From the IMG/VR virus record IMGVR_UViG_3300028895_001083: DNA of 64,000 nt. One strand, given 5' to 3'. Position 1 is the first letter of the stretch; every line of letters starts with the position of its first letter. This document shows positions 2,584-52,094 of the stretch, in pieces. The notes below the pieces were generated by a model, which saw nothing but the letters and a program-made list of their open reading frames with translations, did no database searches and had not been told where the DNA came from. Origin of the DNA: a virus. Taxonomy: Duplodnaviria; Heunggongvirae; Uroviricota; Caudoviricetes. Position numbers and translations under genes: made by a program.

Positions 2584-2599
2584 TTATTCACGTCAATAA
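2584..2599 (+). promoter_or_regulatory. Palindrome-family site 1 (TTATTCacgtCAATAA, one mismatch)
   Basis: Lies 3 nt upstream of the SD of gene 2612. Confidence 0.45.
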
Positions 2600-4067: not shown

Positions 4068-4195
4068 ACGATGTATATTCCGAAGTGGGACGACGCATGT
4101 TCTGCAGGTAATTCTCCGTTTACGCTGCTAGTCTACGTTTTCGGCGACTGGGCGTGCTTGTCACCCTGGCACAGGCCGAATATCTATCCGAGGGT

Positions 4196-4456
4196 ATGGT
4201 TGCCCGCGGGTTTACTTATCCAGCAGCACGGTGCGGCATCCGGATCACCGGCGGCCACGTGTTAATCTGGCTCAAAAATCGATTATTGGAGATGGGATAT
4301 CTCAAATGCGGTTCGACCTATCCCCCAGGGGTTAATACCGCCGACGAGGACGGTATGCAGTTAGATGGTCATGTAGCGCGTTCGAAGATAGCGTCCACTC
4401 CGTTGGTGATCCGCCCGATCGATCGGGTGGCTCATCGCGTATCCCGTGATCGTTAA
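4196..4456 (+). CDS. Hypothetical protein
   Basis: ATG with a GAGGG SD; moderate GC3. Confidence 0.4.
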   Translation: MVARGFTYPAARCGIRITGGHVLIWLKNRLLEMGYLKCGSTYPPGVNTADEDGMQLDGHVARSKIASTPLVIRPIDRVAHRVSRDR

Positions 4457-5837
4457 TGTTCACCCCAATAGGAGAAAAGAAACAGTGCCAAATGACGGAC
4501 TTGGTCCCCCACGTGTAGGGGACCGGTGCCGAGTCATCAAAGCCAGCATGTGGGCTCGTGCGGAAGATCGTGCCGGCAACTTAGTAGTCGGCGACACGTT
4601 CACCGTTGTCAGAGTCCGCGGAGTGCGTGCTGACGGCGGACCCGGAGTTGAATTCCGGACGTACGAGGGCAACCTTCACACCTTTCCGATCGGCGATGTC
4701 GAAGTCATCGCACGTGCGAGCGGTGAGGACGCCCCACAGGAATTCAGATCCGGTGATTTGGTACACGTCGTATCGAAACCGATTTCTGCGCACAACCCGC
4801 ATCACGCCGGGTATCTGCAGCGCGGACATGTTATCCAGGTATCACACGCTGAGGACCGGTGGATTCATTACGATCTGCCGGGCGGCGGCACACAGTCGAT
4901 ACATGCGACTGATTGCCGCTTGCTCTGGCGTTCCGACGATGCAGAGATTATACCTGGGTGCACTGTGACTGTGCTACGTAACAACGTCTCAGCGCGGAAG
5001 CAACACATCGGCGCTTTGCTGGAGGTAGGCGACCACCTGAGGGTGTTACGCACGGACGGTAAATCGGTTTGGTACAAACGTGTAAATGATGGCTACGGTC
5101 AAGAACACAATATCCCATATAAGGACGTCCGCCGTGACGGGTGTGATGATGTGTTCAAAGACTGCCGCGCAAGAGACGTGGTAGTTGTCAAAAATCCGCA
5201 CGGTTGCATGCACCCAGATGGGCATCGGCAGCTGCGCAAGGGTGACATGGTCACTGTCAGCAATCGCGATAGCTGCGGCATCGCGTATAAATACATCAAT
5301 GCGGAGGGCAAGCTGGCTTTGGCCTGGTTGGACCACCGCGATATTGTGCTGTACAGACGACCGGTCGCCGGAGGTGCTGGGCCTCGACGCAAGAAGCCCA
5401 AGAAATCAAGCCGGTACCCTATGAAAGCCATGAGTACCGGTCGAACCAAAACTGTTTCTGAAACCAAAGAAGGAGCTTGTGACGCTATGCAGTCATTCAA
5501 CGCCAATCGAGAAGAGTATATCAAGTTGCTGGAGGCCCACTTCACCAAGTGCGAGGCCGCCAAGAAAGAAGCCGATGCCAGCATCGCCGCGGCGCTCAAG
5601 GAAGGCTCGGCGAAGATCACCGAACGCGTGGAGAAAGCCCCGACGAGCCACGTCAGCGCGGACGTCAAGGTCGCCACGTATTCGGGGCCGAACATCGCCA
5701 ACCTCGCGGCGCATATCGCGACGTTGAAGCGTTGCTGCGACGAGGTCGTTGAAGTCGACGCCCGCGAAGATCAGCAATACTTCGCCGAGCCGTCGGTCAA
5801 CATGGACCGTCACGCGCAGGTTACGCTCAGCATGTAG
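4446..5837 (+). CDS. Hypothetical protein (463 aa) with C-terminal K/E-rich helical segment
   Basis: Long ORF. GTG start at 4446; an alternative GTG at 4485 has an AGGAG SD. Confidence 0.6.
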   Translation: MIVNVHPNRRKETVPNDGLGPPRVGDRCRVIKASMWARAEDRAGNLVVGDTFTVVRVRGVRADGGPGVEFRTYEGNLHTFPIGDVEVIARASGEDAPQEFRSGDLVHVVSKPISAHNPHHAGYLQRGHVIQVSHAEDRWIHYDLPGGGTQSIHATDCRLLWRSDDAEIIPGCTVTVLRNNVSARKQHIGALLEVGDHLRVLRTDGKSVWYKRVNDGYGQEHNIPYKDVRRDGCDDVFKDCRARDVVVVKNPHGCMHPDGHRQLRKGDMVTVSNRDSCGIAYKYINAEGKLALAWLDHRDIVLYRRPVAGGAGPRRKKPKKSSRYPMKAMSTGRTKTVSETKEGACDAMQSFNANREEYIKLLEAHFTKCEAAKKEADASIAAALKEGSAKITERVEKAPTSHVSADVKVATYSGPNIANLAAHIATLKRCCDEVVEVDAREDQQYFAEPSVNMDRHAQVTLSM

Positions 5838-5944
5838 CAAACCATCAGAGTGTCTTTCTCAAGAAAGGCAACAGGGGCGGCGGTTGACCGCTTCCGCCGC
5901 CCCTACTTTTACTTTCAAGCATACAACTACCGGGAGGGTTCACA

Positions 5945-8393: not shown

Positions 8394-8447
8394 GCGCAGG
8401 CATAACAGAGCTTTAGAGTCAGGTTTAGATTTATGTTAGAGGGACCC

Positions 8448-8469
8448 GTGCGCTCTGCGCACTTTTAGG
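8448..8469 (+). terminator. Rho-independent terminator
   Basis: GTGCGC-tct-GCGCAC hairpin followed by TTTTAGG, directly after the stop at 8393. Confidence 0.5.
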
Positions 8470-8908
8470 TTCGAGTCCTGACGCGGGCACTTTTTCGACT
8501 GTCCGTGTGGCGAAATTGGAAAACGCAGGTCCCCTCCCAGCAGACTTCGACAGCTTACTCCTAGGCTCACATAGGTTTGTCATGATGTGCAATCAATCGC
8601 TACGAGAAACCCATTTTGAATATACGGGTTAGATTCCCGTCCCGGCCTCCTTATTGTCCACACGCTACCCATAAGGGCCGGGTCGTATAATGTTAATACG
8701 TTCAACATACTCAGACTAACCTCGTGGCTTAAACGGTGGACAGTGCATATCTGCGTTTACGCTAAACCGAACCCAGGGCCCCCCCTGTCAGGACAATATG
8801 GGTTAGGGGCCCGCCAGTGCCGAGTCAATAGTCGACAGCCGTGGCTTCACAGCCTTGCGGTAGCCCGGTGCGATCCCGGGTCGGCGCTCTCATAGAAAGG
8901 AGGACGAC

Positions 8909-9262: not shown

Positions 9263-9480
9263 TGAGCGTCGAGTATATCGACACTGACTTGTGGACGAAA
9301 CGGTGCGGCAGCGACTACAGCCGCAACCGCTTCTCGCTCGGCCTGGCGCTCAGCCGCGTCGACTGCTTGGACTTCATCCTTGTGAGTGTGTACATCGGCC
9401 CCTGGAAACTCTGGTGGCGTACACGCACCAAGGCGGAACGCATCAAAAAGGCCGAGGCCGCTTGGCCTTGGTGGTACTAA
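9262..9480 (+). CDS. Hypothetical protein (W-rich)
   Basis: ATG overlaps the upstream TGA (TGATG), consistent with translational coupling. Confidence 0.55.
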   Translation: MSVEYIDTDLWTKRCGSDYSRNRFSLGLALSRVDCLDFILVSVYIGPWKLWWRTRTKAERIKKAEAAWPWWY

Positions 9481-9492
9481 AAGGAGGATACG

Positions 9493-9744
9493 ATGTCATG
9501 GAGAAAATTCTGGCGCGATTTGCGATGTTTTGCGGCCGGAGAACCCAGTCCCCGCAACGTAACTCTCGGCGAGGCTCACATCAAACATTTGGCCGGCGGA
9601 GGCAACATTGTTTTGCCCCGCAACACCGTCAAGATCACGTTTGCCGACCTCGGCCTCGAAGGCATGCTCGCAGCCATCTCGTCAGGACATCTTACTATTG
9701 ACGCCGTCGGCGATGACTTCGTCTACAGAAAGGAAGACGCTTGA
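9493..9744 (+). CDS. Hypothetical protein
   Basis: AAAGGAGG SD with 6-nt spacing. Confidence 0.6.
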   Translation: MSWRKFWRDLRCFAAGEPSPRNVTLGEAHIKHLAGGGNIVLPRNTVKITFADLGLEGMLAAISSGHLTIDAVGDDFVYRKEDA

Positions 9745-10337
9745 AATCGATTGTGCACGAGGACTTTTTCAAGAGCCTCAAGCGCCTGTGCCGCTCCAAG
9801 TGGCACCCATCAAACCTCTGGTACCGGTTCAAATGTTGGGCCTGGAAGAGGTATACCACGATCAAGCCACGCAATCTCGACCATACGTGGTGCGATCGCT
9901 GTGAACTACTCCCGCACATGATGTTCGAGATCTTGGGCGAGTTCATCGAGAAGGAGTGCTCGCCCGGCCATGTCGAGTGGTACGGCGAGCACGGCCACAA
10001 GATCGAAGTCGATGGCGAGGAAGTCTACGTCATGGACGAGATGAAAGCCCTGTGGGAGTGGTTCACTGAGAAGTACATGAAGGCCTACCCGGAAGCCGAG
10101 GAGATGATCTACGATCGCATCCGCGCGATCGACGAGCAGCATCTGAAAGCGCACTTCGTTCCGTACGGAGACAGCGACGACCTCGTCGAGTGGGACCCGC
10201 AGTACGACGATGCTTCTAAGAAAGAGTTTGTCTCGAAGCTGTACTCGGAGTGCAGCGAACGCGAGCAGCTCGTTGAAGAAGAGAAGGCGGAGATGATGCA
10301 CCGCCTCGTCAACATTCACCGGTATATGTGGACTTGA
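9741..10337 (+). CDS. Hypothetical protein
   Basis: TTG start overlaps the upstream stop. An alternative ATG-ATG start lies near 9918. Confidence 0.5.
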   Translation: MKSIVHEDFFKSLKRLCRSKWHPSNLWYRFKCWAWKRYTTIKPRNLDHTWCDRCELLPHMMFEILGEFIEKECSPGHVEWYGEHGHKIEVDGEEVYVMDEMKALWEWFTEKYMKAYPEAEEMIYDRIRAIDEQHLKAHFVPYGDSDDLVEWDPQYDDASKKEFVSKLYSECSEREQLVEEEKAEMMHRLVNIHRYMWT

Positions 10338-10681: not shown

Positions 10682-12565
10682 TTACTCGAGCAGCTCGTCA
10701 TCCCACTCACCATCCGTAAGCGGCACCGATGCCCGCAGTTGTTCGTCGGTGATCGCGTAGGAGGCGAGCTCGTCGAGTCGTGGCCACCGCTTGGTGCGGT
10801 ACCACACCGCCACGCAGCCCAAATTGACAGCCTGGGCGAAGTCGTCAGTGAATCCTTCCTGCCGGGTGATCCGGTAGATCTCACCGGCGGCCATCGTGGT
10901 GATTTTGTCTTCGGTCAAGGCCAGAAAGTCCCGGATCAGGCCCGGATCCTCTTGGGAGTTGTAGTCCTTGTCGAAGAAACGGAGCTTCTGGCACTTGATC
11001 ATCGCACACGTCAGCAAGAGCGTTCGGCTCTTGTCGACACGGTAGTGGCTACGCGGATGCTGCATCGTAGGAGCAACGTGGTAGCAGGGCTGCTGGTTAG
11101 CGGAGCGGACGTACTGACAGGGCATCACTTTGCGAGTCGGAATGCCCGCTTGAATCAGGAACGTCTCCCGCAGAGAGCCGGCACCAGTGTAGTCGTGTGC
11201 GAGAATCTCGGGCTTGAAGATATCCCAGTAGTGTTTGACCTCTTTGGCTTCGCGCAGGTGGTCGTGGGGTGTAAGGAGCCGCTTGCCCCACAGTACGTCG
11301 ATCGAGCCATCGTGCTTCACACCAAGGAGAGCGATCGTCGTAAAGCTGATCTTCTTTTCACCGCCCCCTCCCCAGTCAACGCCCAGCACGCGAAATTTGT
11401 ATTGCCCGCAGCGACCACGGGCACGTGCAACTGTGTTGGGCCCGAGGTCAGACACCCGGTCAATTTCAGTCAGCGTAACGAGTTTGGCGGCCGTGTCGTA
11501 AGACTCGCCGAGAACCTCGTTCCAAAACACGTTCGCAGGCGTGTTGCCTTTGCCCGCCATCTTGGCGAGGAGTTCAGCCCACTTGTCAGGCTTGGCATAG
11601 TGCAAAGGCATGATCACCTGTGGAACATGGTATCCCGCCTGTAGCCATACCCGGTCGGGATGCCGGTGTACCCAGCGCCCCAGTCGGGGACTAATCGGCT
11701 TGCCGCAATGATAACAAATCGTCGCCGGGCACTTCTCGCTGATGTCGGTGTGATACTCGCCGATCATCTTCTCGAGATGGAACTCCATGGACGGTATGTT
11801 CCAGCGCGGCTTGCCGTTCTGGGTACAATGAAAACAGGGAATAAACCACTCGGCCTGGCTGGACTCGGTCCACAGGGCCTCTAGAGTGTTGTCCAACGTC
11901 TTCGGCGTGCCGGTGAACTGCCGGATCGCCCAGTCGGATGCCGACATCGTTTCGCGGATGATCGGGATATGTTCATGGTTCATATCCTGGACCTCGTCGA
12001 TGGCCACTTTGTCCGCGGAAATACCCCGGACACGGTCAGCGTTGAGGAATGCGAACGAAAAGAGCATTTTGGAGTCGTTACGGAAGGAGCGGTGCAGCAC
12101 GCTGTTCACGGTGGTCGTGTCCGACCACAAGAACTTCACCGGACTTTGGTCGATGAAGGGCTGGACGAACATCGTGCTGAAGCGCCGAACCTGCTCGAAC
12201 AGCGGCATCACGTAGAGTGTGCTGAAGTTCGGGATGGAGGTGGATGTGATTACCCCGTGGGCAGCGAGCGATGTGCTCTTGCTCACCTGCCGCCCCGTCT
12301 TGTAGACTATGGCGGACGGCATACGGAATCTGAAGATCTCTTCAAAGGGGAAGTGGTTCGCCAAGGTGTACGGCTTACCCTTGAGATTGAGGAGCAGCAT
12401 GAGCCCGTTGGCAAGTGAGTCCAACCGGCCCGACTGCAACAGCTGCGTGAAGAGCCTGACTCTTTCGTTAGCTGACAACTCCTCGATATTCTGGGGACTG
12501 AATGCGGCCCTCATCCGCATCTGCAGTCGTGCCAGTGCTTCAGGTTCTTGAAAGGGTACATCCAT
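10682..12565 (-). CDS. Terminase large subunit (GpA-like)
   Basis: 627 aa. Walker B-like AIDEVQD. Central CFHC...CYHCGKP zinc-finger pair and a C-terminal nuclease-sized domain match the lambda gpA-type terminase architecture. Confidence 0.8.
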   Translation of the reverse strand: MDVPFQEPEALARLQMRMRAAFSPQNIEELSANERVRLFTQLLQSGRLDSLANGLMLLLNLKGKPYTLANHFPFEEIFRFRMPSAIVYKTGRQVSKSTSLAAHGVITSTSIPNFSTLYVMPLFEQVRRFSTMFVQPFIDQSPVKFLWSDTTTVNSVLHRSFRNDSKMLFSFAFLNADRVRGISADKVAIDEVQDMNHEHIPIIRETMSASDWAIRQFTGTPKTLDNTLEALWTESSQAEWFIPCFHCTQNGKPRWNIPSMEFHLEKMIGEYHTDISEKCPATICYHCGKPISPRLGRWVHRHPDRVWLQAGYHVPQVIMPLHYAKPDKWAELLAKMAGKGNTPANVFWNEVLGESYDTAAKLVTLTEIDRVSDLGPNTVARARGRCGQYKFRVLGVDWGGGGEKKISFTTIALLGVKHDGSIDVLWGKRLLTPHDHLREAKEVKHYWDIFKPEILAHDYTGAGSLRETFLIQAGIPTRKVMPCQYVRSANQQPCYHVAPTMQHPRSHYRVDKSRTLLLTCAMIKCQKLRFFDKDYNSQEDPGLIRDFLALTEDKITTMAAGEIYRITRQEGFTDDFAQAVNLGCVAVWYRTKRWPRLDELASYAITDEQLRASVPLTDGEWDDELLE

Positions 12566-13192: not shown

Positions 13193-13584
13193 CTTTAATC
13201 GATCTTTTGGTGCTCGCTATGGCGGCACATACCCTCGTCAGCGTGTGGTTGCAAGACGGCGGGCTATTCGAAAGCTGGCGCGATTGGCTTCGTGCCTGGG
13301 CAACGCCCACGATGCGCCAGCACAGCTCGTACGAAATGCCCACCCGTTGGTCAATGGTTCGTATGAAGATCGCATACTTGGCAGAATGTCGTTTCTGCCT
13401 AACCTGCCAGGCCTGCTTTTGGCTTCTGGTACTCTTCTGGCTCCCCGGCTATTGGCTTCCAGCCATCTGGGGTGAAATCCTCTACGTGCCGGTGTACGCA
13501 CTGGCTGCTGCATGCATTGCTAGTGCCGCGACGTATCTGATGGATGCGCTCGAGGCGAAAGCAGAATCTTATTCACGAGAATAA
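13189..13584 (+). CDS. Integral membrane protein
   Basis: GGGAAG SD and multiple TM helices. The stop TAA lies inside palindrome site 2. Confidence 0.5.
   Translation: MTLIDLLVLAMAAHTLVSVWLQDGGLFESWRDWLRAWATPTMRQHSSYEMPTRWSMVRMKIAYLAECRFCLTCQACFWLLVLFWLPGYWLPAIWGEILYVPVYALAAACIASAATYLMDALEAKAESYSRE
13569..13584 (+). promoter_or_regulatory. Palindrome-family site 2 (TTATTCacgaGAATAA)
   Basis: Perfect TTATTC-N4-GAATAA ending 1 nt before the ATG of gene 13586. Confidence 0.55.
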
Positions 13585-20314: not shown

Positions 20315-20342
20315 TTTACGCTCGAAAAGCCAAGGGAGAGCG

Positions 20343-23792: not shown

Positions 23793-23854
23793 GTGAGTCT
23801 ACCAGATCTGTCGATCGTGTGTCAAGTGTCTTACCTGAAAAAATCTGACAATTT

Positions 23855-27144: not shown

Positions 27145-27915
27145 ATGGAAACAAAATGTGCGCATGCGCAGCAGGACTGGGCGACAGCCTTACTGCAGCG
27201 ACACGGCAAACTGATGGAAGTCGAGGAGATGGAGGCCCTCATTAAGAGGGGTAAGGCAGGGGACGACGACGCGCGGAACCGCGGGATTGCTGGTTGCTAC
27301 AGGCTGGCCTTTCAACAGGCCTGGCGCGCAGCGTACAACGATCCCCACTTCTCCGTCGACGATCTCTTCCAGGAGGCCGTGATCGGCCTCATGAAGGCAG
27401 TCGAGCGCTGGCGACCAGAAACGGGCAACCGATTCGTAACCGCTGCTTGGTTCTCGATCCATGCCGCAATCTCATGGTACAAAAAGTGCCATAGGCGCCT
27501 CGTATACTACCCGCCCCGCTGGGACGAAAAGGGTGTCAAGCGGCCGGACTGGACTAAAGACTGTCCGGAGCTGTTTGCAGACTACGTGTCGTTGCATAAA
27601 CGCGTGGGCACGGGCAATAGGCGAAATCCCGGGATATTCGTGTACGAGATGATTGAAGACGAGACGCTGCGCGACTTCGTTGCCGACGTCGAGAGCGAGG
27701 ACCAAGCCGATATGGTCTACGAGGCGTTCGAGAAGTTGACGGAGCGTGAAGTCGACATACTGCGGCGTCGCTATCTCGGCGACAAGCTTTGGGAGATCGG
27801 TAAAGTTTACGGAATCACCCGCGAACGTGTTCGGCAGTTGATCATCAAAGCCGAAAATATCATCCACAATCACGTCTTGAAAGAGCAAATCGATGGAGAC
27901 GCTGGTACTGCTTAA
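27145..27915 (+). CDS. Sigma-70 family sigma factor (phage-encoded)
   Basis: Region 2-like FQEAVIGLMKAVERW...FVTAAWFSIHAAISWY. Region 4 HTH EVDILRRRYLGDKLWEIGKVYGITRERVRQLIIKAE. Confidence 0.75.
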   Translation: METKCAHAQQDWATALLQRHGKLMEVEEMEALIKRGKAGDDDARNRGIAGCYRLAFQQAWRAAYNDPHFSVDDLFQEAVIGLMKAVERWRPETGNRFVTAAWFSIHAAISWYKKCHRRLVYYPPRWDEKGVKRPDWTKDCPELFADYVSLHKRVGTGNRRNPGIFVYEMIEDETLRDFVADVESEDQADMVYEAFEKLTEREVDILRRRYLGDKLWEIGKVYGITRERVRQLIIKAENIIHNHVLKEQIDGDAGTA

Positions 27916-29568: not shown

Positions 29569-29664
29569 CAGCACTTCGCGGGGTCGAAGTTGCGTCAGCC
29601 AGCCACCGAGTGTGGCCTGTGCCAAAAGCCCACTCGGTAGGCTGGTCTTATACAAGGAGCCGCC

Positions 29665-30003
29665 ATGGACCGCATGATGACGATCAGCGAGGAGGAACGG
29701 GCGATCATCGAAGCGTGTATCGCCGACTGCATCGATGCAGTGACAAAACAACGTATGCTCTGCATGCGTGAAGACCGCTTGGCTCGTAAAGAACAGCTGC
29801 AGCTGAATGAGGAGTATCGTAAGCTGTCTCCTGCGGACCGTCGACAGACGGGAAGCGAACTGTTGCAGTTGGAGGTCCGAATGGAGGAACTCATAACTCG
29901 GTTCGACCCAGATGACTGGGAACCGACACCTGACATTGAGGAACTCTGTTTGGATGGACCACGTGACACCTCGTCGACCGAAACGAAATTTTCTTCCGGA
30001 TGA
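29665..30003 (+). CDS. Hypothetical protein
   Basis: AAGGAG SD. Confidence 0.6.
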   Translation: MDRMMTISEEERAIIEACIADCIDAVTKQRMLCMREDRLARKEQLQLNEEYRKLSPADRRQTGSELLQLEVRMEELITRFDPDDWEPTPDIEELCLDGPRDTSSTETKFSSG

Positions 30004-30069
30004 AGGAGTTAGTTCCTTCCGAAGGAAGGTACTGACTCCATTGCATTGCCTTCCGTAAGGAAGGTAATG

Positions 30070-30123
30070 TAATAAACGACTAAAGTTGGTCCAGAGGGCC
30101 AAAGGCACTTTAGTCGTTTATTA
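30070..30123 (+). repeat. 17-bp perfect AT-rich inverted repeat with 20-nt spacer
   Basis: TAATAAACGACTAAAGT ... ACTTTAGTCGTTTATTA. It is flanked by further hairpins (CCTTCC-GGAAGG x2, TCCCTC/GAGGGA, GGGGGCGG/CCGCCCCC). Confidence 0.5.
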
Positions 30124-30171
30124 TAAGGCGGGGTATGGATGTGCTCCCTCTGCTGAGGGACCCGTCCAATT

Positions 30172-30187
30172 TTATTCACGTGAATAA
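30172..30187 (+). promoter_or_regulatory. Palindrome-family site 3 (TTATTCacgtGAATAA)
   Basis: Perfect copy inside the structured 30.0-30.25 kb hub, 70 nt upstream of gene 30257. Confidence 0.55.
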
Positions 30188-30256
30188 GAAGCGTTCCCAG
30201 GGGGCGGTATGTGGCCGCCCCCATAAGTGTTGTTCTTTCCCAGAAGGAGGCCTCAT

Positions 30257-30790
30257 ATGGCCAAAGGAAAGCGAAAGAAGAAGCGTGCTCCGATGATCAG
30301 CAAGACCGAGGAGCTTGGCCCGAACGACCGGACCCTCTTGATCCGGCGGTATCGGAAGAAGTTCCCCAAGACTGACCGTGTCATCAAGATGAGCAATGGC
30401 CGGAAGCGCCGAATCAAAGGCATGCCGGCCACCGTTCTGTTGAACGAGAAGATCCTGCGAGATTACCCCCACAGCGGGGTCACCGCGCAGAACATCTACA
30501 ACTTCGACTCGGACGTCAAGAACGGGAAGAAATCGAAGCCGGTGGGCAAGTCCAAGAAGACGCCGGCACGGGCAGAGGCACAGACGCCCGAGACCACGAC
30601 CCCGCAGAAGAGCGTGGACCTCAATGGCATGTCGCTGGAAAAGTCGCAGACCCTCTTCGAACAGATGAAGACTGCGAAACCCACCGCCATGCCGCGACTC
30701 TTCGGTCAGTTCATGGCCGAGATGACGACGCAGATGGACAAAGCGACGGAATGGGCATCGAAAACCACGGTGTCCGATCTGATCAGCTAA
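30257..30790 (+). CDS. Basic (K/R-rich) protein, possible nucleic-acid binding
   Basis: GAAGGAGG SD. N-terminus MAKGKRKKKRAP. Confidence 0.6.
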   Translation: MAKGKRKKKRAPMISKTEELGPNDRTLLIRRYRKKFPKTDRVIKMSNGRKRRIKGMPATVLLNEKILRDYPHSGVTAQNIYNFDSDVKNGKKSKPVGKSKKTPARAEAQTPETTTPQKSVDLNGMSLEKSQTLFEQMKTAKPTAMPRLFGQFMAEMTTQMDKATEWASKTTVSDLIS

Positions 30791-31061
30791 CCCGGGCGTT
30801 TGCCACTCTCTGTCCTACACTTGCCACAGAGAGCGTGCCGGTTACCCCCTCCTAACCCGAGGGAAGGTGATCAGGCTCCGCGGTTCGTCCTTCATTGGGC
30901 GGCCGCGGCCTCGACCTGGGGTTCGGTCGGTTTGTGACGAACGCTAGTTGAATTCCCCCCAATTTAACCAGTGGTACCGCCAAACCCCAGGTCACAAAGC
31001 ATCAAAATGCGCGCCTTCTTGATGCCCTCAGAGGCGCGTGGGAAGATGCGTTCATGTACAG

Positions 31062-31098
31062 CGCCGCCCCACATCGTCGTGGGGCGGCGTCATTTCTC
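31062..31098 (+). terminator. GC-rich 11-bp hairpin plus T-rich tail (terminator or attenuator)
   Basis: CGCCGCCCCAC-atcgtc-GTGGGGCGGCG followed by TCATTTCTC, just upstream of the SD of gene 31117. Confidence 0.4.
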
Positions 31099-31116
31099 AC
31101 ACATAGGAGAGGACAA

Positions 31117-36676: not shown

Positions 36677-36905
36677 ACTCGCCTTCGACGAGATCACCGT
36701 AACGCTCAGCGACTTCCAACGACACTGGCAGTTCAAATATGGCGACAAGCATTTGGCGGACTGGTGGCCAGCTTCTGCGAAGGGACAGCTCACAGGGTCA
36801 CAAGACTCCGTCGACTGTGTGAGCACGTCTCAAGCGCAGAAGCTGGCCATCGCCGCTAAGAAGAAGCTGTTTACCGAGATTCGGCAGGCGCTTCAGCAGA
36901 GGTGA
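36600..36905 (+). CDS. Hypothetical protein
   Basis: High GC3 in this frame where it overlaps the low-GC3 tail of the HldE-like ORF. Confidence 0.5.
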   Translation: MRPSKRALRQERLKTALEELETLRTELAFDEITVTLSDFQRHWQFKYGDKHLADWWPASAKGQLTGSQDSVDCVSTSQAQKLAIAAKKKLFTEIRQALQQR

Positions 36906-37044
36906 GCTCCTCTCGCAGGATTTGTACATCCGGCGGGGCGTCGACACCGAGGCGGATCCGATCACGACCAGTGCGGATGACCGTGACGGTGATGTCGTCG
37001 CCAATCTTGATCTGCTCACCTTCTTTGCGGGACAGGACCAACAT
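36871..37044 (-). CDS. csrA: Carbon storage regulator CsrA/RsmA homolog
   Basis: 57 aa, MLVLSRKEGEQIKIGDDITVTVIRTGRDRIRLGVDAPPDVQILREEL. This nearly co-linear alignment to CsrA ([48 protein letters not shown]) was done by eye. AAGGAGG SD. Confidence 0.8.
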   Translation of the reverse strand: MLVLSRKEGEQIKIGDDITVTVIRTGRDRIRLGVDAPPDVQILREELTSAEAPAESR

Positions 37045-37491: not shown

Positions 37492-37507
37492 TTATTCAGG
37501 AGAATAA
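37492..37507 (+). promoter_or_regulatory. Palindrome-family site 4 (TTATTCaggaGAATAA)
   Basis: Perfect copy ending 1 nt before the ATG of the SbcD-like gene (37509). Confidence 0.55.
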
Positions 37508-43243: not shown

Positions 43244-43272
43244 TTGACAGGCTCAACAACGGCAGGTAGTAT
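43244..43272 (+). promoter_or_regulatory. Sigma70-like promoter (TTGACA-N17-TAGTAT)
   Basis: Perfect -35 with 17-bp spacer. The -10 keeps the invariant A2/T6. Lies upstream of the AAAGGAAG SD and GTG at 43304. Confidence 0.5.
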
Positions 43273-43756: not shown

Positions 43757-43763
43757 AAGAAAA

Positions 43764-45450: not shown

Positions 45451-46134
45451 ATGCAGCGGCCGCCGCCGGAAGAATACGAGGCGCTGCCGGAACGCAACAT
45501 GTTCTCCACCAACCCCGCTGGTCACATGGCCAGGCGGCTCTACCAAGCGTACAAACGCGAGACATACTGGCGTGCTATGCGCGTGGAGAATGTCAAGCTA
45601 CCGAACTTCAACACGCGCGAGCTGGGTGACTGCTGGCCGCGGCTGGCACGCCTCATCATGCAGTCGGGCTGGTCGAATGCCGAGCGGTTCATCCACGTGC
45701 AGTTCAAGTACGGGCCGAGCAGCGAGAAGCTGCAGACGCTCGAGCACGGACCGCTGGTGAACATGCTCACGTCCGAAAAGGCGATGAAGCAGTACACGCA
45801 GTACATCGTCCGTGCCGACAGCATGCTGGTACAGCAGTTGGAGTCTGCCAAACTCGAGTTCAAGTGTGCTAGCGCTGAATGCGCGGGACAGTACCCGCAC
45901 CTGCCCACCAGGGAGCGCTGGGAACTTATTCTCATGAATAAAATGTTGGATCTCCCGCCGCTGTTCCGGTACTGCGTGGCCTCTTCCGAGGGGCTCGCCT
46001 GTGCCAAGGACTTGTGGGAAGAAGGCTTTCAGCAGTTCATGTCCGATCCGATCGGGTATACGCGTACGTGGGAAGCGACCATTCCTGCCGAAATGAAAGC
46101 CGAAGCCGAAGAACTACTGCAGCTCAAACTCTAG
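45451..46134 (+). CDS. Hypothetical protein (contains intragenic palindrome site 5)
   Basis: First ATG after the helicase stop. Confidence 0.45.
   Translation: MQRPPPEEYEALPERNMFSTNPAGHMARRLYQAYKRETYWRAMRVENVKLPNFNTRELGDCWPRLARLIMQSGWSNAERFIHVQFKYGPSSEKLQTLEHGPLVNMLTSEKAMKQYTQYIVRADSMLVQQLESAKLEFKCASAECAGQYPHLPTRERWELILMNKMLDLPPLFRYCVASSEGLACAKDLWEEGFQQFMSDPIGYTRTWEATIPAEMKAEAEELLQLKL
45926..45941 (+). promoter_or_regulatory. Palindrome-family site 5 (TTATTCtcatGAATAA), intragenic
   Basis: Perfect copy inside ORF 45451-46134. It embeds in-frame ATG AAT AAA ATG and lies about 200 nt upstream of the DnaB-like helicase gene. Confidence 0.45.
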
Positions 46135-47801: not shown

Positions 47802-48919
47802 AATCGGTTACCGGCGTGACCCTGGGCAACGATGCCGCAGGCGCACACGTCATCAACCCGTTCCTTTACGAGAAGCTCCAGAAACGCTTCGGCGATGTTA
47901 TCATCGCCAAGCAAGGCGAGCCGATCTACGGGAACTACACGTATGACGGCAGCGGCTTCAAGTACGACACCCTCGGCGGAGAGTATTATCGCGTCTGCTG
48001 CCCGTTCTGCGAGCAGAAGCGCGCGGTGGATACCAAACACCGACTGTGGATCAGCCATCGCTGGGGCGTCGGCCTCGACGAGGATGACCCGCAGACCAAA
48101 CTGAAGCCGAACGATCGGTTTTGGTGGGCGTGGGTGTGCTACAACGAGCATTGCGAAGAGAACCCGGCGAACACCAAACAGTTGCAGACCTGGGTCTACG
48201 GCGGTATCGGCCGGGAGCTACACGCGCCCGCCGTCAAGCTGCAGTTCCACACTGTGCCGATGGCGTCGCTCGGACTCGTCGACTGGCCTGGCCGCTGCTT
48301 GCGGGTGGACCAGCTGCGACCGGAGCACCACGCATGGCAGTACCTGGCGACCCGCGGCTTTGACCCCGCGGCAGTTGGCCCACGCTACGGCGTGACGTAC
48401 TGCGAGAGTGGTTCGGCGCGCTTCCCGATGGCGTTCGGACGGTTGGTGATCCCGATCGTGATGAACGGCGATATGGTTGGCTGGCAAGCCCGCCCGCCAT
48501 ATGAAGCAGACTGGAAGACCACCGCCAAGTACTACAACTGTCCCGGCATCAACCGGCGACTCATGTTGTACGGCTTCGACATAGCCAGGGCGTATCCGTA
48601 CTGCGTCATAACCGAGGGCGTCACCGACGTGTGGGCTGTCGGCCAGGGGGCGATCTCGCTCCTCGGCAAGCACATATCCCCGCAGCAGGCAGAGCTGATC
48701 GCGCAGAACTGGAAAGCAGCCGTGATCGCTCTCGACCCTGACGCAATGGACCGAGTCGAGCGTATCCAGCAGCAGCTGGGCAGTATGCCGACGGTGGTCG
48801 TGAAACTCCCAGACGGTTGCGATCCAGCTGACATGGATCAGGATCGCTTCTGGGATCTTGTATGGCAAAGTTCCGTAAACCAGAATGTTGATCTGTTAGG
48901 ACTACAGAATGATTCCTGA
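47798..48919 (+). CDS. DnaG-like DNA primase
   Basis: Zn-binding CCPFC...CYNEHC. TOPRIM acidic motifs VITEGVTD and ALDPD. ATGA coupling to the helicase. Confidence 0.8.
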   Translation: MKSVTGVTLGNDAAGAHVINPFLYEKLQKRFGDVIIAKQGEPIYGNYTYDGSGFKYDTLGGEYYRVCCPFCEQKRAVDTKHRLWISHRWGVGLDEDDPQTKLKPNDRFWWAWVCYNEHCEENPANTKQLQTWVYGGIGRELHAPAVKLQFHTVPMASLGLVDWPGRCLRVDQLRPEHHAWQYLATRGFDPAAVGPRYGVTYCESGSARFPMAFGRLVIPIVMNGDMVGWQARPPYEADWKTTAKYYNCPGINRRLMLYGFDIARAYPYCVITEGVTDVWAVGQGAISLLGKHISPQQAELIAQNWKAAVIALDPDAMDRVERIQQQLGSMPTVVVKLPDGCDPADMDQDRFWDLVWQSSVNQNVDLLGLQNDS

Positions 48920-51900
48920 ACTAGGTCTCGACGACCTTCAAGCGATTTTCCGCAACGACGAGGACAACGAGTACAGTCGGCGCTTTCCGATGTACCCCCT
49001 CGTGTCTCCCGGCATGCCGCCGCCTGGCCCGGACTTCATCGCCCACGCGAAAGCGCTCGGCGATGCTAACCCCTACGTCGTAGAGGGTACGGGCAAGAAC
49101 AAGCGCGGCATCGAAGCCGGATTCAAGCTGCAGTGCCTGTATCTGAAGGCGCTGTACTCGAACGAACTCCACATGCCCATCAAGGTGAAAGGGCGTACCG
49201 AGACGGTGCGCATCCTGCCCGGGCATCTCTGGGGCGATCATGCCGAAGGTCCCAAGTACCTCGAGAACGAGGAGCTGCGGGGACGACCGCGTGTGATGGT
49301 TGTTGGAAAGCACCCTGGCCTCGAAGAGATAGGCGAGGGACGCAACTTCGTCGGCCCGTCTGGCCGGCAACTGAAGGACACGTTGACCGCGCTCGGTCTG
49401 AGTGATGCCGAGCTCAATGATTGGTACGTGTGTAACCTGGTGCGTTGGATGAACGTCAATCCGCAGAGCGGCGCGTTGCCGCAGGCGTGGATCAAGGACT
49501 GTCTTCCGCTGCTGCACCAGGAGATCCGGCTGTACCGGCCTGACTATATCCTGTGCCTCGGGGCCGAAGCGACCAAAGCGGTCATCCCGGGCAACACAGT
49601 GAATACCATGGTGGGCCGTTACGTCGAGCGCACTGAGATGCTGCAAGAGTATGGCGAGCCTGATGACCTGCATACCTCCAAGGTGATGGCCATCACGCAT
49701 CCGGCGGCTGTGCTGCGTACCACGGAGTTGTACCCGGCGTTCGAAGCCACCCTGCGGAACTTCATCCAGTTGATCCGTGGCGAGGAGTTTACGAGCGCAG
49801 AGAACGACAACATCACGATCCAATACATGTACAAGGAAAGGGAGTTGAAGGAGTACGTTGACTACGTCCTTTCTCGCCCTGGGTTGAAAAAGATAGCAGT
49901 TGACGGTGAGTGGCACGGCCAGCATCCCGGCGAGCCGGGGTCGTACCTCCGTACGATACAGGTAAGCCACACCGGCAAGTATGCCGCCGTCATCGTCCTG
50001 CGAGGGCAGGGCGGTGGTACTGCGTTTCGACCAGGCATTTCGCGCGCGATCGATCACCTTAACCGGCTGCTCGATCGTGACGACGTCCAGATTGGCGGCA
50101 GCTTCTTCGCTGCTGACCTTCCGTGGCTTGAACACAACGGCCTGAACATCGCCCACCGCTTCAAGGTACCGCCCACGGTCGACGAGATCCGCGGCGGTAA
50201 CTACGCAGGCGGCTTCGACATCGGCTTGGCCCACCACGCCTACAACGAGACCGGTGACTTCAAGCTGGAAGTCATGGCCTCTCGGTTGTGCGGTGCGCCT
50301 CGCTGGGACGTTGCGCTGGGCGAGTGGAAGAAGGCGTACCTCAAGGAGCGGAAGATGAAGGACGAGGAGCTCGAAGGGTACGGAGAGTGCCCCGACGAGG
50401 TCCTACTGCCCTACGGCGGCAAAGATGCTGCCTACACACGTCAGCTGATGGACAGGCATTGCAACCTGCTGAACGGCGATCGCTACGGCAACGACTGCTG
50501 GATCCCGTTCCATCTGTCCATGATGGCATTCCCGGCCTTCAACGAGATGGGCACGATCGGCGTCAAGATCGACCCCGAACGCATTGATGAGCTCACCGAC
50601 CAATTCATCGAAGTGAGCGCCCAGAAGCTGAAGAAGCTTCAGGAGGACATCAACTGGCCGGCGTTCAACCCTCGAAGTTCACAGCAGTGTGTGGAATTCC
50701 TGTTCGGCGAGCGCTACTCTACGCGCCGTGACAAGGACACAGGAGAGCGGCTCAGCGTGCGTCCAGCGGGCGCCATGACGCTCAACCTGGAGCCCATCAA
50801 GTCCACTGGCAAAGGTAAGCCGTGGGGCTGGGTGATGTCCAGAGGCGAACAGGAGAAGTACACGCCGAGTACAGATAAAGAGACATGTGGCATTTTGGGT
50901 TTACAACACCCAATGGCGTTACAGCTACGCGACGTGAGGCTGATCGACCAAGTGTTGAAGTCCGTATTCCGTCCGCCTAAGTACAAGGCAAAATCGACGG
51001 AGATCGAACTCGACAGCAATGGCCGACGGATCTACGGCGGTGGCATCGCTAAGTACATATGCCATGACCAGCGTGTGAGAAGTTCGTTCCAACAAGTGAA
51101 GGAAACTGGACGTGCGTCAAGTGCGAGGCCGCCATTACAGAATATCAGTAAGCGTCGCGAAGACGATTACTCGAGAATCCTGGGTGACCAATACCGCTGG
51201 CCAATCCGGTCATTTATCGTCAGCAACACCGACCCCGGCTATGCCGAACCTACCGTCCTTGTAGAGTCAGACTATAAGGGCGCGGAACTTATGGGGATGG
51301 CGGTGATGGCTCGCGATGCGCAAATGTTGGATCACTGCTTACGCGCAAACCTGCCCGATGGCGATCCGCAGCAATATGATATCCACTCAAATATCGCTGT
51401 GACTTCCTTTCAACTTGACTGCGAGGCTAGCAAAGCTGGACTCGCATCGATCAAGCAGAAGGGCAAGCGCGTTGCTGCGAAAAACATCATCTTCGGCGTA
51501 GGCTATGGACGCACCGCGGAGGCGTGCGCCAGGCAGTGCCAGGAAGAAAATGCTCCTATCACCGTTGCGGAAGCGCAAAGCATTATCGACACGATCTTCG
51601 AGCTCTATCCGGGTATTCCAGCGTTGCAAGAGGCACTCCGTGCCCGCGTCGCTAACCCGGGATGGCTTAGAAATTGTTTCGGTAGGTATCGTCGATTCAT
51701 CAGCACGTCTGATCGAGCGGCGATGGGCGAATTGGAGCGCCAGGCACTGAATTTTCCGTTTCAGAGTATGGTAGCCGATGCCGTTTCGACGGCGCTATAT
51801 TGGCTACACAACCATCCTCGTAAAGAGGAACTTGGGTACAAGATTGTCCTCCAGATCCACGATGCGATCGTGCTGGAGGTCCCATGTCGCAGCTTGGACG

Positions 51901-52094
51901 TGGTACACAACGAGATCCTGCCAGAGTGCATGGTCGACAAAGTGTCCTTCCAGGCATGTGACTTAGACGGAGCTCCGTATGCGGACAGTCCGATCTACCG
52001 ATTTGGGTTGGATCAGGACGTGTTCACGCGATGGGGCTTGAAGTTGACAGAAGAGGAGTGTGAGCGGTTGGGAATTAGTCCCGATTATATCTAG
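48909..52094 (+). CDS. Family A DNA polymerase with N-terminal UDG-like (family 4-type) domain
   Basis: Pol motif A DYKGAELM, B KRVAAKNIIFGVGYG, C QIHDAIVLEV. N-terminal GKHPGLEEIGEGRNFVGPSGRQL and ITHPA resemble the UDG family-4 motifs GE(A/G)PG...FVG.AG and HPS. Confidence 0.9.
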   Translation: MIPELGLDDLQAIFRNDEDNEYSRRFPMYPLVSPGMPPPGPDFIAHAKALGDANPYVVEGTGKNKRGIEAGFKLQCLYLKALYSNELHMPIKVKGRTETVRILPGHLWGDHAEGPKYLENEELRGRPRVMVVGKHPGLEEIGEGRNFVGPSGRQLKDTLTALGLSDAELNDWYVCNLVRWMNVNPQSGALPQAWIKDCLPLLHQEIRLYRPDYILCLGAEATKAVIPGNTVNTMVGRYVERTEMLQEYGEPDDLHTSKVMAITHPAAVLRTTELYPAFEATLRNFIQLIRGEEFTSAENDNITIQYMYKERELKEYVDYVLSRPGLKKIAVDGEWHGQHPGEPGSYLRTIQVSHTGKYAAVIVLRGQGGGTAFRPGISRAIDHLNRLLDRDDVQIGGSFFAADLPWLEHNGLNIAHRFKVPPTVDEIRGGNYAGGFDIGLAHHAYNETGDFKLEVMASRLCGAPRWDVALGEWKKAYLKERKMKDEELEGYGECPDEVLLPYGGKDAAYTRQLMDRHCNLLNGDRYGNDCWIPFHLSMMAFPAFNEMGTIGVKIDPERIDELTDQFIEVSAQKLKKLQEDINWPAFNPRSSQQCVEFLFGERYSTRRDKDTGERLSVRPAGAMTLNLEPIKSTGKGKPWGWVMSRGEQEKYTPSTDKETCGILGLQHPMALQLRDVRLIDQVLKSVFRPPKYKAKSTEIELDSNGRRIYGGGIAKYICHDQRVRSSFQQVKETGRASSARPPLQNISKRREDDYSRILGDQYRWPIRSFIVSNTDPGYAEPTVLVESDYKGAELMGMAVMARDAQMLDHCLRANLPDGDPQQYDIHSNIAVTSFQLDCEASKAGLASIKQKGKRVAAKNIIFGVGYGRTAEACARQCQEENAPITVAEAQSIIDTIFELYPGIPALQEALRARVANPGWLRNCFGRYRRFISTSDRAAMGELERQALNFPFQSMVADAVSTALYWLHNHPRKEELGYKIVLQIHDAIVLEVPCRSLDVVHNEILPECMVDKVSFQACDLDGAPYADSPIYRFGLDQDVFTRWGLKLTEEECERLGISPDYI

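Follow-up and report, generated by a model that had tools for sequence, protein, structure and literature searches.

Hairpins processed by RNase III occur among the early genes of phage T7 (R0.3, R0.5, R1.1, and others), in Bacillus phage SP82, and in the lambda N leader and sib site. In enterobacterial operons, hairpins of the REP/BIME type halt 3′ exonucleases and determine how strongly neighboring genes are expressed relative to each other. In the jumbo phage 201phi2-1, long-read RNA sequencing revealed 132 termination sites, many of which are not classical intrinsic terminators, together with eight small RNAs derived from premature termination in 5′ leaders (PMC11512511). Here, we analyzed the intergenic spacer at positions 30004–30256 of a 64-kb stretch of DNA (hereafter the window; IMG/VR record IMGVR_UViG_3300028895_001083), which is a piece of an uncultured tailed phage of ~220 kb. 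Together with its extensions, ~82 kb of the phage sequence was read. A first-pass annotation had noticed a cluster of hairpins in this spacer and proposed a replication origin, a packaging (pac/cos) site, or a multi-factor control region rather than a simple terminator. In our best explanation, to which we give about even chances, the spacer is a composite of RNA stem-loops on the rightward (plus-strand) transcript, in which a 3′-end and processing module is followed by a 5′ leader.

Structure of the spacer

All six of the previously described hairpins were found, and the genes that flank them (29665–30003 and 30257–30790) agree with independent gene calls. Two CCTTCC palindromes lie at 30015–30029 (N3) and 30049–30064 (N4), followed by a perfect 17-nt inverted repeat (30070–30086 and 30107–30123, with a 20-nt spacer), the hairpin TCCCTC-TGCT-GAGGGA (30145–30160), a copy of the palindrome TTATTC-N4-GAATAA (TTATTCACGTGAATAA, 30172–30187), and an 8-bp stem, GGGGGCGG-N7-CCGCCCCC (30200–30222). 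Such patterns are rare by chance: in the window, CCTTCC..GGAAGG was found twice against 0.01 expected and TTATTC..GAATAA four times against 0.00 expected, while the 17-mer of the inverted repeat is present only as its own two arms.

Folded as RNA, the region 29995–30265 reached −131 kcal/mol on the plus strand (z = −10.2) and −110.7 kcal/mol on the minus strand (z = −7.3). In an 80-nt sliding scan corrected for GC content, 30001–30120 was the top plus-strand outlier of the window (z = −6.9), with a convergent-gene terminator at 20341 as the runner-up (z = −5.3). Shuffling each half separately gave z = −12 for 30004–30125, which holds hairpins H1, H2, and H3, and z = −3 for 30126–30256, which holds H4–H6. 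Ordinary intergenic gaps of this phage have z of about −3 to −6.5 on the plus strand; the structure of the second half is therefore ordinary. Accordingly, the description of the spacer as a densely structured hub holds insofar as its structure exceeds chance, but the locus consists of two parts rather than one hub. The neighboring gaps (29569–29664 and 30791–31116) likewise hold hairpins, and stem-loops bracket every small orphan gene between 29.0 and 31.4 kb.

The first two hairpins, at 15 to 16 bp, are both longer than first described and abut without a spacer. H1 (30005–30039) forms 15 pairs on the plus strand, with the top CCUUCC-GAA-GGAAGG and a basal stem, GGAGUUAGU/ACUGACUCC, that includes one U·G pair and one U·U mismatch. 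H2 (30040–30073, plus strand) also forms 15 pairs, with a CCUUCC/GGAAGG top closed by a GUAA tetraloop and a basal stem, AUUGCAUUG/UAAUGUAAU, that includes two G·U pairs. The tops (CCUUCC-loop-GGAAGGUA) share an identical 6-bp stem and differ in their loops (GAA versus GUAA), and beyond this core the similarity of the two units falls to about 60 to 65%. Five of the nine basal pairs differ between the two hairpins, having changed on both sides with pairing kept. Judged from these sequences, H1 and H2 are paralogues, and it is the hairpin shape that appears to be kept, because the diverged basal pairs still pair. A degenerate third copy of the CTTCCG..GAAGG unit, H0 (29991–30007, plus strand), forms a weak hairpin over the stop codon of the upstream gene (UUCUUC-CGGAU-GAAGGA, −2.8 kcal/mol) and competes with H1.

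H3 (30070–30123, plus strand) combines the perfect 17-bp AU-rich stem with an inner GC stem of 6 to 7 bp (UUGGUCC/GGGCCAA, one U·G), the two being separated by a 5-nt internal loop. The outer 8 bp consist of an A-tract, UAAUAAAC, opposite a U-tract, GUUUAUUA; if these pairs are counted as A-tract and U-tract, the tail, with five U in eight positions, reaches the U-tail criterion of the scan tool. H4 (30136–30168, plus strand) has 13 pairs, interrupted, around UCCCUC-UGCU-GAGGGA, with one U·G. H5 is the perfect 16-bp palindrome at 30172–30187, which has no strand and forms only a weak hairpin. H6 (30200–30222, plus strand) is a GC-rich hairpin, GGGGGCGG(U)-loop-(G)CCGCCCCC, whose 9-pair GC stem is followed by AUAAGUGUUGUUCUUUCC; it resembles other GC-rich terminator stems of the phage, which stand after genes and carry U-tails (compare those at 5872, 31062, 43760, and 53609), but its own U-tail is poor. 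A seventh, weak hairpin, H7 (30232–30248, plus strand), has the form UUCUUUC-CCA-GAAGGAG and pairs the Shine-Dalgarno sequence GAAGGAGG (30243–30250) of the ribosome-binding site, the two elements together spanning 30232–30250.

We also observed a miniature open reading frame inside H6 (30209–30226; ATG TGG CCG CCC CCA TAA, encoding MWPPP), whose start codon lies in the loop and whose polyproline codons form the 3′ arm. It is probably due to chance, its own ribosome-binding-like GGGGG being locked in the stem, although a stalling leader peptide is conceivable.

The spacer thus holds at least four kinds of element: two hairpins that are paralogues, a long hairpin with AU flanks, one member of a palindrome family found across the phage, and a GC-rich leader hairpin that resembles a terminator. 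This bears out the suggestion of a multi-factor control region that is more than a simple terminator.

Strand preference of the hairpins

Each imperfect hairpin has more pairs and a lower energy on the plus strand than on the minus strand: −22.0 versus −17.8 kcal/mol for H1, −21.3 versus −11.8 for H2, −26.9 versus −23.1 for H3, −13.5 versus −12.3 for H4, and −19.7 versus −17.4 for H6. All five local non-Watson-Crick pairs in H1–H4, and all seven when the extensions of H5 and H6 are included, are G·U on the plus strand and would be A·C on the minus strand (one-sided sign test, p = 0.03 to 0.008). The other plus-strand intergenic gaps of the phage also fold better on the plus than on the minus strand. 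In addition, the GUAA loop of H2 is a GNRA tetraloop on the plus strand only. Given the wobble bias and the GNRA loop, transcribed RNA fits better than a double-stranded DNA site. The half-sites of the two CCTTCC palindromes are spaced by 3 and 4 nt, respectively, a difference that also speaks for RNA because an RNA loop tolerates it and a dimeric DNA-binding protein usually does not. The plus strand carries both neighbors of the spacer and nearly all genes between 23.9 and 62 kb, and the sequence features suggest that the elements act as single-stranded plus-strand hairpins, most likely in the rightward mRNA. The strand bias weighs against a duplex-DNA site more than it proves RNA. More generally, strand-biased G·U pairing can tell RNA-level from DNA-level readings of palindromes when relatives are missing.

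These observations bear directly on the idea that the palindromes are double-stranded DNA operators, with CCTTCC-N3/4-GGAAGG (in two or three copies) and TTATTC-N4-GAATAA bound by dimeric proteins that control transcription into the downstream gene for a 177-aa protein. The 6-bp half-sites do lie about one helical turn apart, the three CTTCCG-containing units are spaced by 23 and 34 bp, and the H5 palindrome, itself a very weak hairpin of −2.1 kcal/mol, has six copies in 82 kb that agree in their half-sites and vary at the center, the typical pattern of a protein-binding site. However, complementarity in H1 and H2 runs 9 to 10 bp past the half-sites with unrelated sequence, which an operator would not need; the spacer lengths of the two CCTTCC copies are unequal; every mismatch is G·U on one strand; and no recognizable promoter lies nearby to be controlled. 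The other H5 copies stand 1 to 14 nt before start codons or within a gene, where a translational or RNA role fits at least as well. We therefore regard operators as improbable.

Hairpins could also act on single-stranded DNA, either as an extruded promoter of the N4 type or as a primosome or primase loading signal like the G4 origin. The wobble bias would fit any single-stranded plus strand, the three abutting hairpins recall the G4 origin, and C-GAA-G, the loop of H1, is an exceptionally stable DNA triloop. The early promoters of N4 have stems of 5–7 bp and 3-nt loops; in contrast, the stems here are 15 to 23 bp, far above that size, and the loop of H2 is a 4-nt GNRA loop. Moreover, the 82 kb encode no N4-like virion RNA polymerase, nor any phage RNA polymerase, and the presence of a sigma-70-family factor in the phage implies that the host core enzyme is used. 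A double-stranded jumbo phage also has no known need for a G4-type signal. Taken together, a role on single-stranded DNA is highly improbable.

Proposed organization of the transcript

We propose that 30004–30125 would form a three-hairpin 3′-end module of the upstream gene, starting 1 nt past its stop codon (TGA, 30001–30003, 1 nt before H1). Within it, H3 could serve as an intrinsic terminator of the bidirectional type or as a strong pause, its A-tract and U-tract flanking a stem of 9 + 7 bp. Stacked just upstream of H3, H1 and H2 would be barriers to 3′-to-5′ exonucleases and may provide entry sites for a double-strand-specific RNase of the RNase III type. Jointly, H1–H3 would fix where the upstream message ends, stabilize that 3′ end, and uncouple the downstream message from it. 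The remainder, 30126–30256, would be the 5′ leader of the gene for the basic 177-aa protein. Here, H6 may be a leaky terminator-like or a stabilizing GC hairpin, H7 would partly mask the ribosome-binding site, and H5 could be the binding site of a putative phage regulator, lying elsewhere right at gene starts. What the analysis shows is the structures themselves, their excess over chance, their plus-strand bias, the division of the spacer into two parts, and the absence of signals for an origin or packaging; functions in termination, processing, stabilization, and protein binding are inferred.

The three hairpins of the predicted 3′-end module resemble RNase III sites, which comprise about two turns (~20 bp or more) of double-stranded RNA in a transcribed region, often with an internal loop. 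H3 offers 17 + 6 pairs with a 5-nt internal loop, and H1 and H2 offer 15 pairs each with end-to-end stacking, in a region between co-directional genes; cleavage is a prediction. The stem of H6 agrees with that of an intrinsic terminator (GC-rich, 5–20 bp, with a loop of 3–8 nt), having 8–9 GC pairs and a loop of 5–7 nt, whereas H3 has a 9-bp AU-rich lower stem and an inner GC stem above the internal loop, and the stems of H1 and H2 are mixed. Read by hand for a U-tract of at least five U in eight positions, 0–2 nt past the stem, the tail of H6 (AUAAGUGU) falls short, as do those of H1 and H2; H3 has such a tract (GUUUAUUA) only if its outer eight A-U pairs are counted as A-tract and U-tract.

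Several observations weigh against the proposed organization. H1 and H2 lack U-tails, the AU-rich base of the H3 stem is atypical of a terminator, and a terminator scan called none within 30004–30256. G·T wobbles are the least harmful mismatch in single-stranded DNA hairpins too, so the bias points to a single-stranded plus strand and not strictly to RNA, and the perfect 17/17 match of H3 would suit a DNA-level site as well. The only homologous locus lies on a 2.3-kb contig (L134), which carries at 717–1241 the gene for one distant homologue of the 177-aa protein (P0109, 30–34% identity, found when 1.84 billion representative proteins were searched exhaustively and without a profile); H1–H5 are missing from it. 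It has a G-rich/C-rich hairpin (662–685) 31 nt before the start codon, compared with 34 nt for H6, but the similarity between the two leaders is at chance level (score 17 versus 14.6 ± 2.4; 347 of 2000 shuffles were as good). The likeness of this hairpin to H6 is therefore positional and does not amount to proof of conservation. Finally, the phage is almost without relatives in the collections searched. The comparison with L134 suggests that H6 may go with the downstream gene and that H1–H3 do not.

If the organization as a 3′-end module and leader is correct, the locus is an ordinary, though unusually dense, case of phage gene punctuation. This would be unsurprising and would help to annotate the transcription units of an opaque 220-kb saline-sediment phage.

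Alternative roles as a structured RNA

An unlikely alternative, though the most plausible of those considered, is that H1–H3 (~122 nt) form a functional structured RNA, either a processed small RNA from the 3′ untranslated or intergenic region or a protein-binding hairpin pair. In the protein-binding variant, a phage RNA-binding protein, for which the 177-aa protein is one candidate, would bind the identical tops of H1 and H2 in autoregulation or in antitermination like that of lambda N/boxB. That the tops are identical while the bases diverged suggests sequence-specific recognition of the apical stem-loop, and H2 has a GNRA loop; yet the loops of H1 and H2 are unlike (GAA versus GUAA). The 177-aa protein, with its highly basic N-terminus and largely disordered predicted structure, recalls proteins with an arginine-rich motif. 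In the case of lambda N, one such protein, the gene likewise follows closely on its own nut hairpin. Compared with lambda nut, the locus has a GNRA loop on H2, a triloop on H1, and a downstream protein with a basic N-terminus, but no boxA-like sequence was seen in the region and the protein matches no family in Pfam, PHROG, or the Protein Data Bank (PDB). No H1/H2-like hairpins lie upstream of its homologue in L134, and the 82 kb of phage sequence hold no further copy of the H1/H2 motif.

Also in favor of a functional structured RNA, several terminator-like hairpins lie further downstream, and jumbo phages have documented small RNAs from 5′ leaders and intergenic regions (PMC11512511). Against this alternative, no promoter precedes H1, and the region matched no Rfam 15 family at the gathering threshold; even at E < 10, the only matches were generic hairpins, namely microRNA precursor models (15 to 19 bits against gathering thresholds of 70 to 91) and one Sulfolobus small RNA model (13 against 44 bits). 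More specific versions are improbable. In one, the H1/H2 tops, stacked on the long H3, would be bound by a phage RNA-binding protein, with the 177-aa protein as the best candidate, and would make up an undescribed, self-contained hairpin-plus-protein circuit, akin to lambda N/nut antitermination or autoregulation, in a jumbo phage lineage almost without known relatives. In the other, the three hairpins (122 nt) would be set free as a stable RNA serving as a decoy for a host factor. If the conserved tops are a protein-recognition element, they would represent a new RNA–protein regulatory pair.

Because the phage encodes a CsrA homologue, a CsrA/RsmA sponge, which would display several GGA motifs in hairpin loops, was also considered. 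We rejected it: the loops are GAA, GUAA, AGA, UGCU, ACGU, and AUGUG, and all GGA motifs lie in stems or in the ribosome-binding site. A CRISPR-repeat mimic was likewise considered and dropped.

Searches beyond the phage returned single matches. The 17-mer of the H3 arm gave six single-arm chance matches in viral contigs. The H1/H2 core gave at least 118 single matches in metagenomes, about the chance rate, and none had two adjacent copies or extended past the core. As an aside, four copies of the core CCTTCCG.AAGGAAGG, spaced by 134, 136, and 202 bp, lie on one metagenome contig (OLPV01018064.1; L046, 1673–2162). By sequence, these copies look like a separate repeat array, apparently unrelated to the phage beyond the 17-nt core.

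Origin and packaging signals

A replication origin or pac/cos site, as proposed in the first-pass annotation, was also examined. In this reading, the CTTCCG units would bind an initiator or terminase and the AT-rich H3 would be unwound or cut. Some features are compatible with it. Local GC content is low (0.42 to 0.49 versus 0.58), three short direct or dyad repeats stand beside an AT-rich inverted repeat, and the replication gene block begins ~7 kb downstream of the spacer. The region also folds far past chance as single-stranded DNA (−38.5 kcal/mol with DNA parameters, z = −12.7).

The origin half of the proposal found no support in base composition or repeats. No GC-skew inflection occurs at the spacer: cumulative skew climbs steadily through 30 kb, from 0.88 to 1.07 over 27–33 kb, and rises across the whole window. 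DnaA-box-like 9-mers are neither enriched in the window (19 versus 24 expected) nor clustered, the only ones in the region being two overlapping halves of H5; an origin of the iteron or DnaA type would be expected to have at least three such boxes or iterons close together. An iteron array is absent, as the direct repeats measure 11 nt, are 82% alike, and number three copies, two of which are hairpin arms, and Tandem Repeats Finder called no tandem repeats in the region. Furthermore, H3 offers no long AT tract, its center being GC-rich.

The packaging half fared no better. A pac/cos site would be expected in or beside the terminase genes, but the large terminase gene lies 17 to 19 kb away on the minus strand. 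As indirect evidence on the genome ends, none of the assembly contig ends that could be placed (at approximately −50936, 679, 3914, 3932, 19561, 31772, 62075, 73087, 79240, and 80533) falls within 30004–30256. The strand-biased G·U pattern would be unexpected in a duplex site of either kind. Both the origin and the packaging-site readings are thus disfavored, and we consider them very unlikely.

No sigma-70-like promoter was found in 28.5–31.5 kb; the window has only three good ones, at 43244 and 52103 on the plus strand and at 23825 on the minus strand. We also looked for shared intergenic words that might mark phage promoters and dropped the idea.

A recurrent palindrome at gene starts

H5 belongs to a family, AAT[CT]TTATT[CG]-N4-GAATAA, of which the 82 kb hold six copies where 0 were expected. 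Of these, five lie in the window (2584–2599, 13569–13584, 30172–30187, 37492–37507, and 45926–45941) and the sixth in the right-hand extension (contig L131, 13457–13472, equivalent to window position 64708). In all but one of the copies, which sit in very short gene junctions, an ATG or annotated start follows at a distance of 1 to 14 nt; these comprise four annotated gene starts, including that of an SbcD-like gene (37509), and one in-frame internal ATG (45943). The copy at 30172 is the only one far from the next annotated start, at 69 nt. Because the half-sites are conserved and the center varies, the pattern suggests a putative dimeric protein site, which may act on DNA or on the translation-initiation region of mRNA. 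If the family marks the regulon of a phage translational or transcriptional regulator, it would give a first way into the study of gene control in this lineage.

The center of H5, TTCACGTGAA, matches the parS core. A ParB/parS reading was dropped: the family conserves the outer half-sites and not the center, and no ParB-like Pfam domain is among the precomputed hits for the ~82 kb.

Flanking genes

The upstream gene (29665–30003, plus strand) encodes a 112-aa acidic orphan protein that matched only itself among 5.8 billion proteins and had no Pfam, PHROG, or PADLOC match. Frameshifting or read-through at its stop codon was rejected: AAAUUUU stands 14 nt from H1 and outside the reading frame, and a ribosome that read through the stop would gain no more than two codons.

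The downstream gene (30257–30790, plus strand) encodes the 177-aa protein, whose Lys/Arg-rich N-terminus begins MAKGKRKKKRAP; it has a GC content at third codon positions of 0.81 and a strong Shine-Dalgarno sequence, which give it the look of a strongly expressed gene. The protein likewise matched only itself among the 5.8 billion proteins, and PADLOC gave no match. An AlphaFold model (predicted local distance difference test, pLDDT, 62) is mostly disordered or helical and too poor for a fold search. Both the 177-aa protein and P0109 begin with MAK and have a Lys/Arg-rich N-terminus, a low-complexity middle, and a C-terminal helical segment predicted with confidence (pLDDT ~90 for residues 130–160); they make up a two-member family without annotation anywhere. 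The genes next to that for P0109 have none in common with this phage. When viral contigs were scanned with the 177-aa protein, with the sigma factor, and with a profile built from two sequences, no matches emerged, nor did a scan of reference genomes give any.

The phage and its other structured regions

The same sequence is present on the European Nucleotide Archive contig ERZ27256770 k141_2006669 (220,266 bp), as well as on a number of contigs from JGI and Logan. The GC content of the window is ~58%. No DNA-level relative was found among GenBank phages; the terminase is at most 32% and the polymerase at most about 24% identical to that of any cultured phage, and the best non-self match of the sigma factor is 32% identical. 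Copies of this phage recovered from other samples show 99.8 to 100% identity; only one of them (L001) spans the spacer, and it is identical there. Nearly all differences between strain variants fall within ~900 bp, with insertions, deletions, and single-nucleotide polymorphisms at 9266–9300 and further polymorphisms on to 10151 (9320–10151), inside small orphan genes; outside this hypervariable spot, the variants are 99.99% identical.

Among the genes of the window are the large terminase gene (10682–12565, minus strand), the sigma-70-family factor (27145–27915), genes for an NAD-dependent ligase and a nucleoside diphosphate kinase, and a replication block with an SbcCD-like nuclease, helicases, a UDG–PolA fusion, and a UvsX-like recombinase. 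The DNA polymerase (48909–52094, 1061 aa) has a uracil-DNA-glycosylase-family domain fused to a family A polymerase. The CsrA homologue (57 aa) is encoded at 36871–37044 on the minus strand, and the gap (36677–36870) between it and a convergent sugar kinase/nucleotidyltransferase gene is filled by a ~30-bp hairpin (z = −6.5, plus strand).

The window carries three transfer RNA (tRNA) genes. Around them lie long, highly structured non-coding stretches (754–997, 1877–2071, 2146–2611, 4068–4484, and 8394–8908), which hold pieces like the tRNA T-arm (GGTTCGAGTCC, GGTTAGATTCC, and GGTGCGATCCC) that neither ARAGORN nor Rfam called as tRNA. Similar uncalled pieces occur at 1677–2160 of L134, from the distant relative. 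Such pieces may be degenerate, split, or unusual tRNA-like RNAs.

Comparison with known systems

Two families of tandem units were compared with H1 and H2 and rejected. TIGR arrays consist of alternating edge and loop repeats of 8–12 nt with spacers of ~9 nt, usually in 5 to 15 units, and at least one phage that infects a halophile, Salicola phage CGphi29, is known to have TIGR-Tas (PMC12045711, from which the definition is taken). The likeness lies in tandem units of ~35 nt in a phage genome, a conserved center between two variable stretches of ~9 nt, and a terminator-like hairpin that follows the array. However, there are two units rather than 5 to 15, no edge repeat, a center of 15 to 18 nt rather than 8 to 12, and mutually complementary "spacers." A Tas protein with a Nop domain (PF01798 or related) was not found in the precomputed Pfam hits for the ~82 kb or among the ten nearest proteins scanned, although a very divergent Tas could escape. 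A type III toxin–antitoxin locus (ToxIN, CptIN, or TenpIN) has nearly identical tandem RNA repeats of 34–45 nt, followed by a terminator and by the gene of an endoribonuclease of the ToxN/AbiQ family. It was rejected for the low similarity of the units outside the core, from which Tandem Repeats Finder called no array, and because the 177-aa protein, largely disordered by prediction, has no PADLOC or Pfam match and none to ToxN or AbiQ.

Among replication origins, that of lambda combines iterons with an AT-rich tract, and a set of three hairpins serves phage G4 as its complementary-strand origin. The spacer recalls them in its short dyad repeats next to an AT-rich segment and in its three adjacent hairpins. 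It differs in having no initiator gene around, no skew signal, few and short repeats, and strand-biased wobbles, and in belonging to a double-stranded jumbo phage.

The spacer also resembles the RNase III processing hairpins of T7, SP82, and lambda. Those hairpins, like the ones described here, are near-perfect, ~15 to 25 bp long, sometimes interrupted by an internal loop, and free of a U-tail, and they are found where a short gap separates co-directional genes on a polycistronic phage transcript. The residual 3′ hairpin is predicted here to stabilize the upstream message in a similar way. T7 has one hairpin per junction at many junctions, whereas here three abut at one junction with no related one elsewhere in 82 kb. 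REP/BIME elements are comparable as tandem stable hairpins right after a stop codon within an operon; unlike H1 and H2, which occur at only one site in 82 kb, REP is a dispersed family with hundreds of copies. H3, in turn, resembles terminators of the bidirectional type, with UAAUAAAC upstream and GUUUAUUA downstream of a stem of 9 + 7 bp, and the phage's own terminators at 43760 and 20343 also pair an A-tract with a U-tract. It departs from that type in its AU-rich stem base, its 5-nt internal loop, its co-directional flanking genes, and the lack of a call by the scan.

The organization proposed here, a 3′-end module followed by a leader, also has a parallel in the jumbo phages 201phi2-1 and phiKZ. 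No sequence or gene homology links these phages to the present one, and the H6 analogue in L134 is positional only. They are nonetheless large phages in which many intergenic stem-loops end transcripts without classical U-tracts, premature termination takes place in 5′ leaders, and leader structure is conserved upstream of homologous genes (PMC11512511). Since 201phi2-1 has such termination sites and leader-derived small RNAs (PMC11512511), the architecture of the spacer would be normal for a large phage.

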